The translations under genes and the position numbers were made by a program. DNA of 32,000 nt, taken from NCBI GenBank assembly GCA_024275415.1, contig JAJRZD010000064.1, positions 30,001 through 62,000 on the forward strand. Direction: 5' to 3'. Shown one piece after another: positions 574 to 22,220 of this stretch. A model generated the notes under the pieces. It ran no database searches. It was not told the DNA's origin and saw only the letters and a list, made by a program, of their open reading frames with translations. Within the stretch, counting starts at the first letter, position 1; every line of letters starts with the position of its first letter. The stretch comes from an archaeon. Its GTDB lineage: Archaea; Asgardarchaeota; Thorarchaeia; Thorarchaeales; Thorarchaeaceae.

Positions 574-737
574 CCCGGATAAGAGAAAATGACTGAGGTT
601 GATTCGGATAAACACACAATCCCTGAACTCCTCCTAGTTCCATTTCTGGAAGAACAGCACTCTACCTAGGGCCGTCCAAATAATGAATCGTAACCCTATC
701 GAATCCCCTGTCAATAATAGAATAAGAGGTTGATCCT

Positions 738-2745: not shown

Positions 2746-2855
2746 TGGTGCTCCGGCCGGGATTCGAACCCGGGTCGGGGGATCGAGAGTCCCCCATGCT
2801 GGGCCGGACTACACTCGGCTACCTGAATTACATCATTCCAAGTATCTACCGGAGC
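2746..2855 (-). tRNA. tRNA-Glu(CTC) with a 32-nt non-canonical intron at position 10/11 (intron 2814-2845); CCA encoded
   Basis: Exon 1 GCTCCGGTAG (2855-2846) plus exon 2 TGTAGTCCGGCCCAGCATGGGGGA-CTCTCGA-TCCCCCGACCCGGGTTCGAATCCCGGCCGGAGCACCA gives a complete cloverleaf. A BHB motif (helix CGGT/GCCG, bulges AG^A and AG^T) cuts exactly at 10/11. Confidence 0.93.
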
Positions 2856-2967
2856 GAAGCAATAACCAGTCCGGAGCACCACTGCACCAATTAACCCGCC
2901 AAATAAGGTTTTCTCACTGCACCAAGAAAAATCTTGGGAGGGCTTGCGAAAATTATTTCCAACAAAC

Positions 2968-3177
2968 TTATCCTGATGGCCATAAATCTGTCAATCCGGT
3001 CCAACTATCCTCAAGAATTTGAAGAAGACCAGCTATCACCTCCTGTGCCCACCCTGTCGCTTGTAAGATGACCGCAATCACAATAGAAATTGTGATTACT
3101 GCAAGCCCGAGCAGCAGACTCTCCTCAACCAGAGGCCCTCCTGTATCTTCTTCTATGATTGTGGGAATTCTTGCCAT
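2968..3177 (-). CDS. Flp/Fap-like type IV pilin (69 aa)
   Basis: EEDTG|GPLVEE: Gly at -1 and Glu at +5, then a ~20-aa hydrophobic helix. Small size, AGGTG SD upstream, adjacent to a secretion ATPase. Confidence 0.7.
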   Translation of the reverse strand: MARIPTIIEEDTGGPLVEESLLLGLAVITISIVIAVILQATGWAQEVIAGLLQILEDSWTGLTDLWPSG

Positions 3178-3207
3178 GATATGTCACACCTTTATGTTGA
3201 TTTGACC

Positions 3208-3311
3208 GTTCATTGTAAGTTGCACGAACTTTATACACCAGAGTGAAGTGCTCTCAGATAACGGCACTGAGTGGACTCTGTGAGGTCAAAGAGTGTGTAT
3301 GGGCAACCTCA
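3208..3311 (-). promoter_or_regulatory. Conserved structured leader, copy 1 (upstream of pilin)
   Basis: Shares identical 15-nt (3274-3288) and 26-nt (3220-3245) blocks with 7253-7351. Stems TGAGGTT/GACCTCA and CAGAGT/ACTCTG. Begins about 25 nt after TTTATAT (3336-3342). Confidence 0.75.
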
Positions 3312-3335
3312 TACTTTTCTTTCATGGAACCGGAC

Positions 3336-3342
3336 ATATAAA
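3336..3342 (-). promoter_or_regulatory. TATA box for pilin leader
   Basis: CTTTATATG on the minus strand, at archaeal TATA-to-TSS spacing from the start of leader copy 1. Confidence 0.55.
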
Positions 3343-3474
3343 GTCCTATACGCCCTTGTCATTTGAACCTCAAAGTAATGCACACTCCCTCTCAGGTTTT
3401 GTGCAGTTGCTGGCCCAGTGCCTTTAATCTTGCCAAAGACAGAAGTCCGATCCATTCATCGCATCGGCTAACAG

Positions 3475-5172
3475 TTACATGTTAACAGACTCCACGATTT
3501 TTGACAAACTAATCTGGTCATATCTGTCCTTTTCTGACACAGCCTTTAACTTGACTACTATTTTTTCAATAATCTCCAGAAATCTTGATGAAACAAACAC
3601 ACCATTTTCGCATGGCTTTCCAAGTCCATCGGGAGTGACAGCAGTATATATGGTGTTGAGTCCATTATATCTCATCAATCCTGAATCGACCTTCTTACAC
3701 ACTTCAGCTATCTCGTTTACATACCGCCTTGAATCCCCGGGAGTTGGCCGTTTCATTGACACAATTATGTCCATTAATGCTAAACTTGCCAAGCTAATAT
3801 TGTGTTCATCCACCCAACGAGTAATCAAGCTTAAGGGCGACCCACTATGACATGTCTGGATTGACCTAAGCCCTGCAGAAATTGACTGGAACAGAGCTTG
3901 ACTATGATCCGCCGTTTGAATCTCTCCCAGTATTAGATAATCGGGCGAACGATGCAGACACTTTATAATCTCAATAGACTTGTCAATGGAACGCGTTTTT
4001 TCCTCTATTGGGTCTACCTTAAACCTAATCTGATGTTGATTCTTTACGACTCTACTTTCAAGAGCATCCTCGATGTATATTTTGCGCCAATGATTTGGCG
4101 TGGTGAAATCTAATGCGTTCATGAGAGTAGTCTTTCCCGTGCCCGGCTCTCCCGTGATTGTGATATTGAATCTCGAGTTTATCGAGAATATGAGAACTGC
4201 TGCCGCCTCGTATGTTAAGGTACCATTTTTTATAAGATCAAAGATTGTGAACGGACGAATCCGTGCTCTACGAATTTCTATACTTGCACCATCAGGTGAA
4301 AGTGGAGGAATACTTATTGACACTCGAAGCAGTATGTCATACACCAACAACTCTGTCTTCAATGATGGGCTTTTTCTATCCAAATGTAAATTGCTTTCTG
4401 CACGAAGAAATGTGCTCAGAACTGCTGTTTCCTTTTTATTCAAACAGACATCAGTTTGCACTCTGCCAAAAATCGAGTGGTCGAAATATACGTTGTCCCC
4501 TGGGAAATCCGAGTAAATCTCTTCAACGTGATCATCCAATATTAGCGGCATTATTTTACCTAACGGATTGTTTTCATTAGCAACTACCTCAGAAATGATT
4601 TCTCTTGTGATTATATTTACTTCGGGAAGTGCCATTGAAATTCTATGATTTACCCATTCACGGGTAGTATCTAATCTCTCCTGAAAGATAACCCTTCTGT
4701 GATTTTCTATCCTGTATCTTTTTAGAAATTCGCTATTCATCTGCTCAAGCAGGGATTTTTCGAGGATACTTTTTACTCTTGGAAAGCTTGCATATCTGAT
4801 TCCCTTATCTTGGCTTGCAAAGAAGAGTGTCAGGTAAGGGCCAATTAGAAATATACCCACTGCATTGATCCAAATCGACAAATCCAATTCTCCAACGAAA
4901 ACGGACTCCCAATGCGTTTCTGCTCCTTTGTACGTTCGCGGACTATCTGACCCCATTTTAATGTGTACGATTTTCCTGCCTGGGTCTACAATAGCAACCG
5001 TATTGTCGGCATCTTCTAGCCGAACCCATATACACTGATCTAATACTGGCTGGCCAGTGCATCCGTTGCATTTATCATTAGGACATTTGATTACGACAGG
5101 TTCATTCCTTTTCATAATGGATTCTAGCATACCTTTCTCCTCACGCTCCGTTTTGTTGGATTGCACCATCAC
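3475..5172 (-). CDS. Type II/IV secretion (VirB11/TadA/CpaF-like) ATPase
   Basis: Walker A GEPGTGKTT, Asp box IEDALE, Walker B YLILGEIQ, His box TCHSGS; RVSISIPPLSPDGASIEIRR motif typical of the family. Confidence 0.9.
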   Translation of the reverse strand: MMVQSNKTEREEKGMLESIMKRNEPVVIKCPNDKCNGCTGQPVLDQCIWVRLEDADNTVAIVDPGRKIVHIKMGSDSPRTYKGAETHWESVFVGELDLSIWINAVGIFLIGPYLTLFFASQDKGIRYASFPRVKSILEKSLLEQMNSEFLKRYRIENHRRVIFQERLDTTREWVNHRISMALPEVNIITREIISEVVANENNPLGKIMPLILDDHVEEIYSDFPGDNVYFDHSIFGRVQTDVCLNKKETAVLSTFLRAESNLHLDRKSPSLKTELLVYDILLRVSISIPPLSPDGASIEIRRARIRPFTIFDLIKNGTLTYEAAAVLIFSINSRFNITITGEPGTGKTTLMNALDFTTPNHWRKIYIEDALESRVVKNQHQIRFKVDPIEEKTRSIDKSIEIIKCLHRSPDYLILGEIQTADHSQALFQSISAGLRSIQTCHSGSPLSLITRWVDEHNISLASLALMDIIVSMKRPTPGDSRRYVNEIAEVCKKVDSGLMRYNGLNTIYTAVTPDGLGKPCENGVFVSSRFLEIIEKIVVKLKAVSEKDRYDQISLSKIVESVNM

Positions 5173-5213
5173 AGTCTATGTACCTTATCGCATAATTCCC
5201 GAACCCTCGGAAT

Positions 5214-6257
5214 TCAGGCTCTAACTGGAATACATCCTGCTTTTTCAATGACACTCTTTATCATACTGTAGTGATCTCGAATACTATACTCTGCAACCTC
5301 CGTTGCTTGTGCTGTAAGTTTCTGGGTCAAGACCGATTTCCTTCCGTGCTCGACAGCTACAAGTCGATCGCTTGCATAGGCCGCAGAAACTGTGAAGATG
5401 AACGGATTTCTTCCTCCTCGCCGTGATGCAGGAATCAATTGAAGAACATCTTGGAGTTTGTCCTTGAGGAAGTTCTCATACTCCGAGGGAGCCCATCCGC
5501 GAGAGCGAATCTTTGCCATGACCCTCTGACTATTCATTAACATGGATATGACTCTGGGAATATAATCTTCAGGCCTGCGTATCTGTGGTACTTGCCCGGT
5601 AACCGCTCGTAATTCGAGGGCTCGTCTAACGATAGTTCGTACGTTCACACGATGTCCACATTTTTCAAAGACTGTCGCAATTTCATCCAAAGTGACAGGT
5701 GCACTTTCTCCAAATTCACGTACAGCGGTCAATAGACATACTGCCATCAACAGTATGTTGTTTGTCACTTTATCAGGCACTTCGGCAAGCATTTTTTTAT
5801 ACAAGTATGCGGTTCGATCCCGCACTTGCTCGTTTAACATCAACAATTTCGAAACATGGTTCAGCGTTCGTAATGCTCTATACTTCGCCTCGTTCTTTCC
5901 AATGCGGATTCTAGCACTATATATTTCCTTTAATCTCTTGAACTTCTTTTGCATATTACTTGGAAGAGATTGCCCACTAGCATCCCTAAAGAATCGATCT
6001 TTATGATAGCCAATATAACTCCCCAAGCCATCCACTATATGCATCCGGTTACCAAGAGACCCAAAGACACTTGCTTCTGGAAGATTCTGGCCGAATTCCT
6101 CTCCCATCTGATATGTAGGGGCAACATACTCTCGCGAGATGACGCGACCACAATCGGAGCAGACGATGAAACCCCTGCTAGCAATGACCGTACCCATACA
6201 ATCAGGGCATTGAAACACAGAATGTTCTAGAACTGATACATCAACCAATGACCACAC
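5214..6257 (-). CDS. Divergent TFIIB/TFB paralog (Zn ribbon + cyclin-fold repeats)
   Basis: CPDC-x15-CSDCG ribbon; degenerate B-reader/linker (FGSLGNRMHIVDGLGSYIG); helical repeats (L.L...V.DRTAYLYKK, PVTLDEIA, GRNPFIFTVSAAY, TQK..AQATEVAEYSIRDHY). Confidence 0.8.
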   Translation of the reverse strand: MWSLVDVSVLEHSVFQCPDCMGTVIASRGFIVCSDCGRVISREYVAPTYQMGEEFGQNLPEASVFGSLGNRMHIVDGLGSYIGYHKDRFFRDASGQSLPSNMQKKFKRLKEIYSARIRIGKNEAKYRALRTLNHVSKLLMLNEQVRDRTAYLYKKMLAEVPDKVTNNILLMAVCLLTAVREFGESAPVTLDEIATVFEKCGHRVNVRTIVRRALELRAVTGQVPQIRRPEDYIPRVISMLMNSQRVMAKIRSRGWAPSEYENFLKDKLQDVLQLIPASRRGGRNPFIFTVSAAYASDRLVAVEHGRKSVLTQKLTAQATEVAEYSIRDHYSMIKSVIEKAGCIPVRA

Positions 6258-6514
6258 CCAGTTTGGCCTACCACAAACTTCCCTAACTAACTTTCAGCAG
6301 GCTGTTATGTGCTAAACCTCCATGCGAATATTACCCGGCGGATAGACAAGGCCATACAAAGAACAAACGGGGCTTGGTGAGATAGAGATGACCGAAAGTA
6401 TTACCAATGCTTGATGCTGGATTCAATGCAACCCATGTAACATCATCAGCCGTGTTATCTCGATATTGCTGTCAGAATCACACAGTATCCCTATAATTAC
6501 ACTCTCATTTCATC

Positions 6515-6532
6515 GTTCATTGTAACTTGGAC
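6515..6532 (-). promoter_or_regulatory. Short motif shared with the 3' end of the two leader copies
   Basis: GTCCAAGTTACAATGAAC; 6514-6532 matches 3207-3225 at 17 of 19 positions. Confidence 0.45.
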
Positions 6533-6710
6533 ATCGAGCAGTGCGTTCAGGCGATGTTCTCTGCTAATCTGTCTTTTTCGAGGTGTTTTGATGAGTTCTT
6601 TATGATATCCCGAGGAACCTGTTGACTTCGGAGAGAGGATCACATTCTGTGGTTCCCGGGTGTCCGATAGCTCTGGGCGAGTCCAACCTTCTCATCGGGT
6701 CATTCGATTC

Positions 6711-7076
6711 TTAAACTATAGCAAGGAATATGTTTTTCGAATCGAATATCTTTCTATGTGATGGTTTTGGAGATGGAAGCGTAAGCATCAATCGAAGACC
6801 ACCAAAGGTGATTGTCACAGACAAACCCGATGAGTCATCTATCTTAAACACAGTTCCCTCCGCGTACAATTTCGCTCCTTCACCCTTTGTCAGCTCCTCT
6901 GAATCAATTATAACCGAAACCATGTCCTTGACATGGAACGGGCCACAAAGAGCTTCTGGCAACTCGATCGATAAGGCAATCCCCTCTTCTTTCGATGTCA
7001 TCCTTAGAACTCTTAGTTTCTTGGTTTCCGTATTCTCGATATCAGTAATCATCGCATCCTTGACACGCAGGGGCAT
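6711..7076 (-). CDS. rpoG: RNA polymerase subunit Rpo8/RpoG (RPB8 homolog)
   Basis: 121-aa beta-rich protein with TFGGLRLML, matching the RPB8/RpoG (S/T)FGGLLM signature. Confidence 0.75.
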   Translation of the reverse strand: MPLRVKDAMITDIENTETKKLRVLRMTSKEEGIALSIELPEALCGPFHVKDMVSVIIDSEELTKGEGAKLYAEGTVFKIDDSSGLSVTITFGGLRLMLTLPSPKPSHRKIFDSKNIFLAIV

Positions 7077-7222
7077 CTTCTATTCTCCAATCTATGGTGA
7101 ATTGCATAATCGAATTAAAGATACCGATAACGTTGTGAATCTAAAGTAGTTACTAACCAGCTGCATGAAACCACACGAAGTTACACATCTCTTGGACTAC
7201 CTTCTGAAACGTCTTGTGGGGC

Positions 7223-7229
7223 TTAAATA
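7223..7229 (+). promoter_or_regulatory. TATA box for Ig-repeat protein 2 leader
   Basis: TTAAATA, 23 nt upstream of the first base of leader copy 2. Confidence 0.55.
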
Positions 7230-7252
7230 GGGACATGGTGAACCTAGAACCA

Positions 7253-7351
7253 GAGGTCTTCGTTGACACAGCTCTGACCTCACAGAGTCACTCAATCGTA
7301 TTGTGGAGCACGACACTCTGGTGTATAAAGTTCGTGCAAGAATCAATGAAC
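7253..7351 (+). promoter_or_regulatory. Conserved structured leader, copy 2 (upstream of Ig-repeat protein 2)
   Basis: GAGGTC-17nt-GACCTC, A, CAGAGT...AGCAC-GAC-ACTCTG, GTGTATAAAGTTCGTGCAA, CAATGAAC; colinear with 3311-3208. Confidence 0.75.
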
Positions 7352-7378
7352 AGTGCTTTCTAGGCACTGGTAGATACA

Positions 7379-10033
7379 GTGTTGGTGATTTCAGTGAAAG
7401 TAAAATCTTCTATCGTTGGGCTTCTATCAATATTGATCATCCTAGGACTCACTACACCAGTTTCTGCACTACAATTAGAAGTACTTTATTTCACAACTGA
7501 TCAGCTCGCGTATGAAGTGGGTGAAACTATTAACATGACCGCTAATTTGATCGCAGACTATAATGACGGGGGCTGGTGCCATATTGTATTCTCAATCATC
7601 ACGGGACAAGGGTCACTATTCAACGATGGCTTTTATATATCGCCTTCACCAAACGCACGACTTTTCTCTTCTACATATACAATTCTCCCCGAAGATGTTT
7701 CACCATACCCTGACCCAATTGTTGCTGAAGTCGCGTTCGAAGTAGAAATACTAGATGGTGAATCGTATCAAACGACAAAACAAATAGTATATGTCAATAT
7801 CACACGAGGTCATCTAAAGGTTCGACCTAGGACAAATCTTTCAGTTCAAGCTAATAGCAATGCCTCGGTTGTTTTGAGTGTGGCCAGCATATTCAACGAA
7901 AGCATACCTCTTTCTGAAACAGATGTGTTGGTAGAACTTATCAGCCCATCAAATGAAACTGTTTTTTCAAATATCACCACCACCTCAACAATCGGCGAGG
8001 TGTCTTTACATTGGGATCGAGTCCCTTTTTCACCTGGGGCTTACTCGCTTCGAGTCAGTGGAAATGGCACCAATGCGTTCCTCCCATTTTCTGAATCACT
8101 ACCGTTATCCATCGAGCCTGAACCATCAACTCTTATACGGATTGAGGCCGTTGAAGAGGTATATGGCCCTACTCCAACTGGCCAGTATTATGAGAACGCC
8201 ACTATTATCGTCAAACACGTTGACATTAATCTTGATGCAATTACCAATAGCACTCTAAGGTGGGCCACATCTTTTGCCAATGGGATTATGCAACCTATCT
8301 CTAATGGGCAATACGAAGCAACTATTCCCTTTAACACTACTCCTGGGCAATATCAAATCAATGTGATCAGTTCCAATGCCAACTATCAAGATGCTGCAGA
8401 ATATCTACCTATCAATGTATTGCCGCGAAGTCTTGATGTTTCTATAATCACCAAGCAGATGCTTCCCACCAATACACTGTCTGTTGATGTGACTTTAAGA
8501 GACTGGATGGAGTTTGAGGAAATCGCCTCCATTCCAGTGAACATCTCCGTTTCCCTAAATAGTTGGAACTTCACTTCCTCAGGCATAAGCAATTCTACTG
8601 GGCAGGTTTCATGTAGCATCAATGTCCCCTTCAATGTATGGGGTGACGGCATCATTACAGTATCGACCGAATCATCGACCTATTACACAATATCCAGTAC
8701 GACCCTCCCCGTTGAGTTATTATATGAACCATCGATCGTATTCAATAAAGAACCCGTTTTCGTCAGGGGCTATCAGACGACCTTGAACATCACTCTATTG
8801 AATCCCTTAAATGAAGCCCTAACCAATATCTCAATTACCATGCTTGATATGAACGGCGATTTAATCGCTTCAGGCTCTTCAGGCCCGCTGACTTTTGTCC
8901 TGATTAAATGGTCAGTTCCCACTGATATTAGTCTGGGCAATTATATCTTTACTATCTGCATACTACCGAACCCCCATTATGCCTCTGAAAAAGTTTCAAG
9001 TTTTAATGCATACATCACCGCGCCTCTTTGGATAGTCTATAATGAACTTGATTGGGTATTCACACGAGGGAGATACTCGAATGTAAGCATTACTCCCCTT
9101 TCCGAATCTAATCTAACTGACACCATTCCACTCACTCTTCAACTGAACGTTGGAACCATTCTTTTTCAAGGTCAAGTGACATTAAGGAGCGAGAGCAATC
9201 TATCGATATTTATCTCCTCAAACACCTCAAAGGGCATATATCTATCAGAAATAGTCGTCGTACATGAGAACTATACTCTGATGCATTCCCCTTTTATTGA
9301 AACCACAATTCTAACAGCGATTACGCCACTCATTTACAACACGAGCGCATACTACCAAGAGCATCTCATTTTTGAAATGACTGTTCTAGATGACGAATCA
9401 ACAGCTCTATCCTACGTTCAGGTTGAAATCTCAGACAATGAAACAGATCGACTGATATCCCAATTCGTAGTCACAGATACCAGTAGTCCTCAAACTGTCC
9501 CGCTGCCACACTGGCTATCTCCTGGACATCATGTGTTTCATGTGACCTTTGATGGGAACTATACACAACCTGGACATCTTAGTATTGAACTAATAGTTTG
9601 GATTCGAACCGCAATCCACATATCAGTAACCCCAATTCTTGACAATCAGGCAATTCTATTGAGCAACAAAAGCTTGGGATCCTTTCAAGATCTACAGATT
9701 GCTTCGACTATCTCATCTGGTTCTATCAGTAGTCCCCCACCGATTTTATTCAATGGTACAACCTCTGTCCTATCATCAGAAGTTCGAACGACCTCGTTGA
9801 ATAGTTGGCCCAGATTCAATTCTGGAACAAGCAACCTGTCAACTGTATCTGCGAACTTTTTAATTATCTCATCAGGAAACGGCCACACAGTCCGCAATCT
9901 AAGAGATTTGAACTCCTTTTTGCTCTCATTCATGGCCTGCTCTACAGACCTCGAAGTACTGCCAAACGATATCACACCCCACTCAGCCCTCTCAGGTCCT
10001 TGGATCACCACATCAGAAAGGAAGCCTTCATGA
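7379..10033 (+). CDS. Large secreted Ig-like repeat protein (likely start GTG 7394); last ~116 codons overlap korA antisense
   Basis: GGTGAT SD before GTG 7394; signal peptide IVGLLSILIILGLTTPVSA; repeated beta-sandwich segments (TTTSTIGEV, ISNSTGQVS, G.Y.L.V). No C-terminal TM is visible. Confidence 0.7.
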   Translation: MLVISVKVKSSIVGLLSILIILGLTTPVSALQLEVLYFTTDQLAYEVGETINMTANLIADYNDGGWCHIVFSIITGQGSLFNDGFYISPSPNARLFSSTYTILPEDVSPYPDPIVAEVAFEVEILDGESYQTTKQIVYVNITRGHLKVRPRTNLSVQANSNASVVLSVASIFNESIPLSETDVLVELISPSNETVFSNITTTSTIGEVSLHWDRVPFSPGAYSLRVSGNGTNAFLPFSESLPLSIEPEPSTLIRIEAVEEVYGPTPTGQYYENATIIVKHVDINLDAITNSTLRWATSFANGIMQPISNGQYEATIPFNTTPGQYQINVISSNANYQDAAEYLPINVLPRSLDVSIITKQMLPTNTLSVDVTLRDWMEFEEIASIPVNISVSLNSWNFTSSGISNSTGQVSCSINVPFNVWGDGIITVSTESSTYYTISSTTLPVELLYEPSIVFNKEPVFVRGYQTTLNITLLNPLNEALTNISITMLDMNGDLIASGSSGPLTFVLIKWSVPTDISLGNYIFTICILPNPHYASEKVSSFNAYITAPLWIVYNELDWVFTRGRYSNVSITPLSESNLTDTIPLTLQLNVGTILFQGQVTLRSESNLSIFISSNTSKGIYLSEIVVVHENYTLMHSPFIETTILTAITPLIYNTSAYYQEHLIFEMTVLDDESTALSYVQVEISDNETDRLISQFVVTDTSSPQTVPLPHWLSPGHHVFHVTFDGNYTQPGHLSIELIVWIRTAIHISVTPILDNQAILLSNKSLGSFQDLQIASTISSGSISSPPPILFNGTTSVLSSEVRTTSLNSWPRFNSGTSNLSTVSANFLIISSGNGHTVRNLRDLNSFLLSFMACSTDLEVLPNDITPHSALSGPWITTSERKPS

Positions 10034-10921: not shown

Positions 10922-11026
10922 GCGGCCATAGTCTAGTCTGGTTAGGACGGAAGCTTCCCAAGCTTTTGACCCGGGTCGAGTTTCCATTATGAACTCGCGG
11001 GACTTCAAATCCCGGTGGCCGCACCA
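10922..11026 (+). tRNA. tRNA-Gly(CCC) with a 28-nt non-canonical intron at 53/54 (10976-11003); CCA encoded
   Basis: Acceptor stem GCGGCCA/TGGCCGC; anticodon arm GAAGC-TTCCCAA-GCTTT. Strict BHB: TTTGA-CCCG-GG^T-CGAGTT / AACTCG-CGGG-AC^T-TCAAA. TATA-like TTTTATC about 23 nt upstream. Confidence 0.95.
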
Positions 11027-22111: not shown

Positions 22112-22220
22112 GGGCAGGTGGTCTAGATTGGTATGATTCTTGCTTGGGGTTCACCAAGGTGCCATACCTTGGCGAACAATTTGCAAGAGGTCGGGAGTTC
22201 AAATCTCCCCTTGCCCACCA
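22112..22220 (+). tRNA. tRNA-Pro(GGG) with a 32-nt canonical intron at 37/38 (22150-22181); CCA encoded
   Basis: Acceptor stem GGGCAGG/CTTGCCC; anticodon arm CTTGC-TTGGGG^T-GCAAG; intron hairpin CCAAGGT/ACCTTGG; T arm GGGAG-TTCAAAT-CTCCC. Confidence 0.92.

Follow-up and report, generated by a model that had tools for sequence, protein, structure and literature searches.

Two leader-like sequences in a Thorarchaeota genome are probably insertions of a short, protein-less element derived from a TnpB-type transposon

In TnpB systems the guide is the DNA immediately outside the transposon end, with the scaffold of the omega RNA at the right end of the element (PMC10691335), and gene-less PATE-like elements of bacteria 'often encode omega RNAs' that are acted on in trans (PMC10055086). 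Here we analyse a repeat unit of 190–212 nt from Thorarchaeota, two copies of which lie in a 32,000-nt stretch of one genome (assembly GCA_024275415.1, contig JAJRZD010000064.1, positions 30,001 to 62,000; hereafter the window, whose own numbering is used): copy 1 precedes a gene for a small pilin-like protein, and copy 2 precedes a gene for a large secreted protein with immunoglobulin (Ig)-like repeats. The original prediction, made from the letters of the window, took them for a duplicated, riboswitch-like leader controlling cell-surface genes. We consider it probable that both 'leaders' are insertions of a non-autonomous, protein-less element of ~210 nt, comparable to PATE and to miniature inverted-repeat transposable elements (MITEs), and derived from a TnpB-type transposon.

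The Thorarchaeota repeat has points in common with several described systems and differs from each of them: (i) As with the TnpB omega RNA (reRNA; OMEGA, IS200/IS605 and IS607), the counterpart of the repeat in nuclease-coding elements is found where a TnpB-type gene ends, shares sequence with the last codons of this gene, and resembles a multi-hairpin, pseudoknotted scaffold that ends at the transposon right end and is followed by a variable flank. However, the Thorarchaeota scaffold matches no Rfam family in sequence or structure, its partner is a protein of 711 aa (vs ~400 aa) that scores below the NCBIfam TnpB cut-off, the left end of the repeat shows nothing resembling a transposon-adjacent motif (TAM), and the RNA of the short copies would begin at a promoter and not by mRNA processing. 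(ii) As in the PATE-like IS200/IS605 elements of Geobacillus stearothermophilus (Meers et al., PMC10055086), left and right ends without a protein are present in many copies and the omega RNA is kept; PATE-like elements depend on a TnpB and a transposase encoded elsewhere, and we propose the same for the Thorarchaeota repeat. In contrast to them, the repeat is archaeal, no Y1 TnpA was found in the genome that holds the window, the flanks of the copies have no conserved target or cleavage motifs, a 7-bp motif occurs doubled within a subterminal inverted repeat, and a TATA-like box sets the scaffold at about +1. (iii) Classical MITEs and the Correia elements of Neisseria are short, non-coding, multi-copy intergenic repeats which can bring a promoter and a structured 5' untranslated region (UTR) to genes. 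The Thorarchaeota repeat is likewise short, non-coding, multi-copy and intergenic and may bring the same features to genes, but it has neither terminal inverted repeats nor a target-site duplication, and its parent encodes an RNA-guided nuclease and not a DDE transposase. (iv) In a study of TldR proteins, the guide RNAs of nuclease-dead TnpB reportedly repress flagellin genes. Here too a TnpB-type guide RNA would lie beside a surface-appendage gene, whereas the RuvC residues of the 711-aa protein look intact by reading and the Thorarchaeota RNA is not beside the nuclease gene. Compared in this way, the Thorarchaeota repeat is a predicted omega-RNA-bearing non-autonomous transposon, here in Asgard archaea, which are held to be the prokaryotic group closest to eukaryotes.

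A dispersed repeat family absent from orthologous loci

Below, G000 denotes the genome that holds the window, and other G numbers denote related genomes of the same family. A search of G000 with nhmmer gave 73 matches, ~55 of them near full length and with at least three sub-families among them, so the two-copy duplication described in the original prediction gives way to a dispersed family. The unit starts with GGGTTGCNAACAGCTG (5' GGGTTGC...) and ends in ...CAATRAACGGT; a TATA-like box lies ~105 nt into it, followed by a structured part that runs to a sharp 3' end. The ~105-nt unit proposed earlier corresponds to this structured part, which is real, but the conserved unit measures ~210 nt and reaches ~105 nt further upstream of the TATA box. 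At GGGTTG, the information content over 63 copies from several genomes climbs to 1.55 bits from 0.15; past AACGGT it drops to 0.04 bits from 1.31, and the right flank is fully variable from its first base. Neither a target-site duplication nor an inverted repeat at the very termini was found in the repeat copies, which sets them apart from classical MITEs.

With copy 1 as query, blastn scored at least 14 matches in G000 itself; of the 36 genomes of the family, 20 gave matches, and among the relatives searched there was no match outside the family. A scan with a covariance model of the repeat (model R1) located the element in 50 of 85 family genomes and in 13 of 17 genera, with a patchy distribution within genera (3 of 6, 15 of 28 and 6 of 17 genomes) and with candidates that reach at least 40 per genome; in the one genome sampled of another family, the model found no element. 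The named records with the element are metagenome-assembled genomes of Candidatus Thorarchaeota. Two pattern scans were set aside: the 12 exact matches in viral contigs, none of which fits the covariance model, are attributed to chance, and the bacterial matches obtained from genome contigs were as many as chance predicts for 17 specified bases. The contig pairs C62/C67, C110/C102 and C37/C60 of G000 each end in the same repeat copy with identical flanks, and many copies in the relatives are also at contig ends; the repeat evidently breaks assemblies, and copy numbers are therefore lower bounds.

The copies are intergenic but are not tied to particular genes. By crude calls of open reading frames (ORFs), the gene downstream of a copy is co-oriented with it in 21 cases and convergent in 29, and several copies end 0–50 nt from the 3' end of a convergent gene. 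Unrelated genes, such as a GAPDH-like ORF and a gene for a TPR protein, are among the co-oriented neighbours.

In the window, sequence inspection placed copy 1 (minus strand) and copy 2 (plus strand) where the original prediction had put them. Copy 1 is full length (212 nt, positions 3205–3416, minus strand; nhmmer model positions 6–212), comprises the left-end part, the TATA-like box and the omega-RNA-like scaffold, scores 110.5 bits with model R1 over 3205–3331, and lies between the ATPase stop (3475) and the start of the pilin-like ORF (3177), with flanks unrelated to those of other copies. Copy 2 measures ~208 nt (positions 7147, approximately, to 7354, plus strand; nhmmer model positions 8–212 at 7155–7354), scores 72.9 bits over 7232–7354, and lies between a divergent RpbG-like ORF (6711–7076, minus strand) and the ORF of an 884-aa Ig-like protein, which starts at 7379. 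A 20-nt core, GGTGTATAAAGTTCGTGCAA, is identical in both, as claimed, and is found nowhere else in the window (0 of 100 shuffles matched). These two copies are more alike than most others and have GTATAAAGTTCGTGCAA in common.

Both sites are free of the element in relatives. In four same-genus genomes (G005, G001, G006 and G003) the pilin-like gene, 75–79% identical, follows the ATPase gene, and the pilin-like loci of these genomes contain no element even with the covariance-model filters off; the spacer from ATPase to pilin-like gene measures 88 nt in G005 vs 297 nt in G000, where the element takes up 212 nt. Orthologs of the Ig protein (883–894 aa) occur in the same four genomes, syntenic on the same contigs as the pilin-like loci, and no element was found at these orthologous loci either, the spacer being 107 nt in G005 vs 302 nt in G000. 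The element came to stand ahead of the pilin-like and Ig-protein genes by insertion into the short promoter regions of these genes in this species only. By eye, the sequence past copy 1 (…ACATAAAGGTGTGACATATCATG) resembles that of G005 just before the start codon (…AATACAAGGTGTGGTATAGTG), and a TATA-like GATTAAAGG stands directly before copy 1; the insertion thus appears to split the native promoter from the pilin-like gene. The filled (G000) and the empty (G005) spacer have diverged so far that their alignment shows neither an exact insertion point nor whether there was a duplication, and with only 47–58% protein identity in the neighbouring ATPase the flanks do not align base by base. A metagenome scan with the ATPase for close strains having an empty site found no relative.

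A covarying fold and a probable nuclease-coding parent

The structural features of the original prediction were largely borne out in both copies. P1 has a 17-nt loop in each (GAGGTT/GACCTC in copy 1, GAGGTC/GACCTC in copy 2), P2 is CAGAGT/ACTCTG in both, the inner hairpin varies (CTCAG/CTGAG in copy 1, CAAT/ATTG in copy 2), AGCAC and CAATGAAC are present as described, and a TATA-like box lies ~25–30 nt upstream of P1. On the minus strand, as read from the sequence and from the covariation counts, the structured part of copy 1 covers 3205–3310 (its upper bound also given as 3311), with P1 at 3310–3305 and 3287–3282, P2 at 3280–3275 and 3244–3239, P3 at 3271–3267 and 3257–3253, and a pseudoknot between GCAC (3251–3248) and GUGC (3225–3222); the copy closes with CAATGAACGGT, which ends at 3205. 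Its TATA-like box, CTTTATATG (3343–3335, minus strand, read from the sequence), stands ~25 nt before P1, and the same alignment column holds TTTATAG, TGTATAG or ATATATAC in other copies; the protein-coding element has ATTATAG at a comparable left-end position, upstream of its ORF. In copy 2, the box was read as CTTAAATA (7222–7229, plus strand) and the structured part covers 7253–7354.

Covariation was counted over an alignment of 67 copies from 21 genomes, for P1, P2, P3, the pseudoknot and a candidate loop pairing. Paired cells amount to 88.4%, vs 30–44% with the partners slid, and double-change cells to 71, vs 24.8 in shuffles, with 0 of 500 shuffles reaching 71. P1, P2 and P3 all covary, which supports a conserved base-paired structure as predicted: P2 switches from CAGAGU/ACUCUG to AGGAGU/ACUCCU, GGGAGU/ACUCCC and CGGAGU/ACUUCG, and all five pairs of P3 vary on both sides. 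The long-range GCAC/GTGC pairing, offered earlier as possible, covaries best, its central pair being U-A in 33 copies, G-C in 15 and C-G in 7; as it crosses P2, it forms a pseudoknot. The pairing of GACAC in the P1 loop with GUGUC is 91.5% paired and nearly invariant, and is neither supported nor rejected by the counts. Wobble cells comprise 129 G·U vs 67 A·C, favouring the nuclease-sense strand. Folding energies of the single sequences are no better than those of shuffles (z −0.2 to −0.9, both copies). Rfam gave no match at the element at gathering thresholds, nor up to E = 10 over 3100–7500.

The ends of the repeat are also those of a nuclease-coding element. In G000, a Pfam scan for the TnpB zinc-ribbon domain identified a TnpB-type ORF on contig C120 (PF07282, 58.8 bits) which ends …HADVNAARNIIHVQDTKSSAVAGRTA* and has a partial repeat copy directly 3' of it: the last 27 nt of the ORF and the next 44 nt align to repeat positions 147–212, and the aligned stretch includes the P3 hairpin, the GGAC…GUCC pairing and the CAATCAACGGT end. 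The left-end match of this locus to the repeat is weaker (E 0.012). When a protein-coding partner was sought beside the partial copies of G000, only C120 qualified, the others being shortened or degenerate. Of 40 family genomes, 24 have homologs of the C120 protein, in most cases as frames of 710–735 aa and with up to 15 matches per genome, and every one of the 20 scanned loci of this nuclease family matches model R1 at the 3' end of the gene (22–68 bits). At these loci, the counterpart of P1 is a hairpin, GUGAAUG…CAUUCAC, within the codons for HADVNAARNIIHV.

The element at locus L163 (G009) links both ends to the gene. Repeat positions 1–65 match its positions 99–164 and repeat positions 146–211 match 2370–2431; the two matches bracket a single 711-aa ORF (265–2397; end at 2400) in an element of ~2.3 kb, the one example in which a complete left end and right end were recovered around the nuclease gene. 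Its left end carries a TATA-like box ~55 nt before the ORF, and a subterminal inverted repeat with a doubled TTGGACA pairs TTGGACAGACTTGGACA at 123–139 with TGTCCAAGTTTGTCCAA at 2401–2417 (94% complementary). A Cas12f1-like TNB domain and a C-terminal half of the guided_TnpB type were recognised in the 711-aa protein, which reaches 60.7 bits with the NCBIfam TnpB model (cut-off 100) and shows, by reading, the RuvC-like D/E/D motifs GADRG, FFEDL and HADINAARNI; no transposase-like domain was noticed in it. Its AlphaFold model (mean pLDDT 74.7) matches structures of Cas12f, TnpB, Fanzor and other Cas12 proteins, with E down to 4e-10 and ~500–550 aligned columns.

Several further loci belong beside these. 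The 710–760-aa TnpB/Cas12f-like proteins (L163:265–2397 and 13 aligned homologs) form a family that is multi-copy in Thorarchaeota genomes; the ~480 N-terminal residues are mostly helical and have no Pfam assignment, and the scores of the family stay under the NCBIfam TnpB cut-off. It may represent a separate branch of large TnpB proteins whose scaffold RNA is defined. At L176 (G016:C81, about 1442–2013), a deletion derivative of intermediate size (~570 nt) has left-end and right-end matches and only a 62-aa remnant of the nuclease frame; it speaks for a repeated origin of short elements through internal deletions. At G000:C117:34563–34693 (minus strand), the last ~32 codons of a TnpB-like gene and the right end, with the upstream 30 nt common to the C120 copy, are found beside an unrelated gene and so represent a decayed insertion. 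G000 also has an IS607-type pair (C57:14460–15961; L149, L222), in which a serine recombinase (192-aa open frame) lies directly upstream of a 411-aa TnpB. The two Cas1 genes of G000 are not linked to the element, and the serine recombinase is likewise unlinked.

Proposed mechanism and competing explanations

We propose that a Thorarchaeota element of ~2.3 kb lost the gene for its 711-aa TnpB/Cas12f-like RNA-guided nuclease and so gave rise to the short family. The left end would have been kept together with the TATA-like box that precedes the nuclease gene in the parent, as would the right-end ~105–125 nt, which overlap the last nuclease codons in the parent and lie where TnpB systems have their omega (guide) RNA scaffold. 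Transcription would start ~25 nt past the TATA-like box, at P1, and the RNA may well begin at this predicted +1; the transcript would then fold into P1, P2, P3 and the pseudoknot and run out of the element, so that the flanking DNA would act as a variable 'guide'. Loaded with this RNA, a TnpB-like nuclease encoded elsewhere would cleave empty sites and so help the element to persist. At the pilin-like and Ig-protein genes, the element now separates the start codon from the native upstream DNA; the scaffold must therefore enter the 5' UTRs either from the element's own promoter or by read-through, and the insertion probably alters the promoters and the 5' UTRs of both genes. Each of the 57 candidate 20-nt guides of the genome matches only its own flank; contig-end duplicates aside, the 16–19-nt matches to possible trans targets in the genome are at chance level. 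For positions 2900–7700 of the window, a look-up of public sequencing runs listed none.

On this account a conspicuous conserved 'leader' would be explained as mobile DNA and a false riboswitch lead would be removed. It would also add a previously uncatalogued omega-RNA-like family, with a pseudoknotted fold supported by covariation and an unusually large TnpB/Cas12f-like partner, which bears on how RNA-guided nucleases evolved and offers a candidate compact editor whose scaffold is known. As a clear archaeal case of a guide-RNA-bearing mini-transposon that inserts into promoters, the repeat would matter for the annotation of Asgard genomes, whose assemblies it also breaks, and for how such insertions rewire neighbouring genes.

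However, several observations weigh against a TnpB-derived, guide-RNA-bearing origin of the short elements: (i) The cognate nuclease is represented in G000 only by a truncated copy (the equivalent of residues 413–711) and a fragment, in an assembly that is 92.9% complete and broken at repeats, and the copies in this genome may be orphans without an intact nuclease. (ii) No Y1 TnpA was found in G000, and the ends of its only serine-recombinase/TnpB pair are unrelated to the repeat. (iii) Pairing in P1 and P2 is incomplete in the protein-coding elements. (iv) The copies are related by descent from few master copies, and the covariation counts overstate the number of independent events. (v) Characterised TnpB systems require a TAM beside the left end. 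In the repeat, no conserved left-flank motif was found in 63 copies, the maximum over 12 flanking positions being 0.15 bits, with a mild depletion of C; because of this, a simple homing model is incomplete.

An extension of the proposal, which we regard as doubtful, is that the short elements are self-expressing guide-RNA genes. The transposon promoter would start the RNA at the scaffold, the insertion flank would be the guide, and the large (711-aa) Asgard TnpB-like nuclease would be recruited in trans with no need of a conventional TAM. In copies that lie in a 5' UTR, as at the pilin-like and Ig-protein genes, the nuclease would bind or process the scaffold and thereby couple the expression of cell-surface genes to transposon activity.

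Among the competing explanations, the one that fares best, and which we still find unlikely, is that a transposon derivative has been retained here because it controls the surface genes, as a promoter and structured 5' UTR that is bound or cut by the TnpB-like protein or by RNases. Two lesser copies in the window speak for such co-option. The scaffold part of a degenerate third copy (578–691, plus strand; model R1 24 bits, E 4.5e-4; nhmmer 560–686, E 2e-4) lies 47 nt upstream of the ORF of a 665-aa Ig-domain protein (738–2735), and a right-end fragment (…TGTCCAAGTTACAATGAACGAT; 6512–6573, minus strand; model R1 21 bits, E 2e-3, internal part missing) lies 255 nt upstream of a TFB-like ORF (5214–6257, minus strand). 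With them, all four copies or fragments within 7.4 kb face the start of the next gene (ORF 738, pilin-like, TFB-like and ORF 7379). Furthermore, the position of copy 1 between the native TATA-like sequence and the start codon implies that the gene is read through or from the element, and copies 1 and 2 share more with each other than with most of the family. Yet four co-oriented copies amount to a coincidence of about 1 in 16, in a genome where orientation is random overall; the insertions are absent from four same-genus genomes in which the genes are otherwise conserved; and no intact cognate nuclease was found in G000.

Less probable still is that the pairing serves DNA and that there is no functional RNA, the hairpins forming in single-stranded transposon ends bound by a transposase, as in the 'peel-and-paste' transposition of IS200/IS605. 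Covariation by itself cannot separate RNA from single-stranded DNA, and the subterminal inverted repeat with its doubled TTGGACA, which overlaps the pseudoknot at its 3' strand, resembles a protein-binding site. Against this, a TATA-like box precedes P1 at a fixed distance in all sub-families, the excess of G·U over A·C cells (129 vs 67) favours the nuclease-sense strand, the structured region falls where TnpB genes have their omega RNA, no Y1 transposase was found in G000, and no conserved cleavage motif flanks the element.

The riboswitch- or ribozyme-like leader of the original prediction, which would sense a ligand and control cell-surface genes, is hardly credible any longer: although the sequence is structured, covaries, matches nothing in Rfam and stands in the window 24–47 nt before three surface-related ORFs, its ~55 dispersed copies show no orientation bias and adjoin unrelated genes (the GAPDH-like ORF, the TPR protein), with many facing convergent 3' ends, it is absent at the orthologous loci, its ends are those of a TnpB-type, nuclease-coding mobile element, and a leader would have no need of the ~105 nt by which the conserved unit reaches beyond the promoter on its upstream side. 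CRISPR repeats, a spliced leader, C/D-box small RNAs and the IS110 bridge RNA were also considered and dropped, since there are no arrays, no fixed partner gene and no matching architecture.

Neighbouring genes in the window

The ORF downstream of copy 1, the 'pilin' of the original prediction, encodes a small hydrophobic protein of 69 aa (2968–3177, minus strand) and starts 27 nt past the end of the copy; it has no Pfam or NCBIfam match, and its identity as a pilin is thus only putative. Upstream of copy 1 lies the gene of a T2SSE-type secretion or pilus ATPase (3475–5172, minus strand; PF00437, 57.8 bits). The ORF downstream of copy 2 encodes the 884-aa secreted repeat protein (Ig-like; 7379–10033, plus strand), for which Pfam gave no match.

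Two ORFs lie between the pilus ATPase and the Ig-protein gene, in the same order as in G001 and G005. The TFIIB/TFB-like one (5214–6257, minus strand) encodes 347 aa, both of its Pfam matches being below the cut-offs, and the other (6711–7076, minus strand) encodes 121 aa with a weak match to RNA polymerase subunit G (RpbG). Rfam tRNA matches at 10922–11023 (plus strand, 102 nt) and 22112–22217 (plus strand, 106 nt) are probably intron-containing tRNA genes. A weaker, partial tRNA match (2757–2815, minus strand) lies just 3' of the pilin-like ORF, and a similar stretch follows the pilin-like gene in G005.

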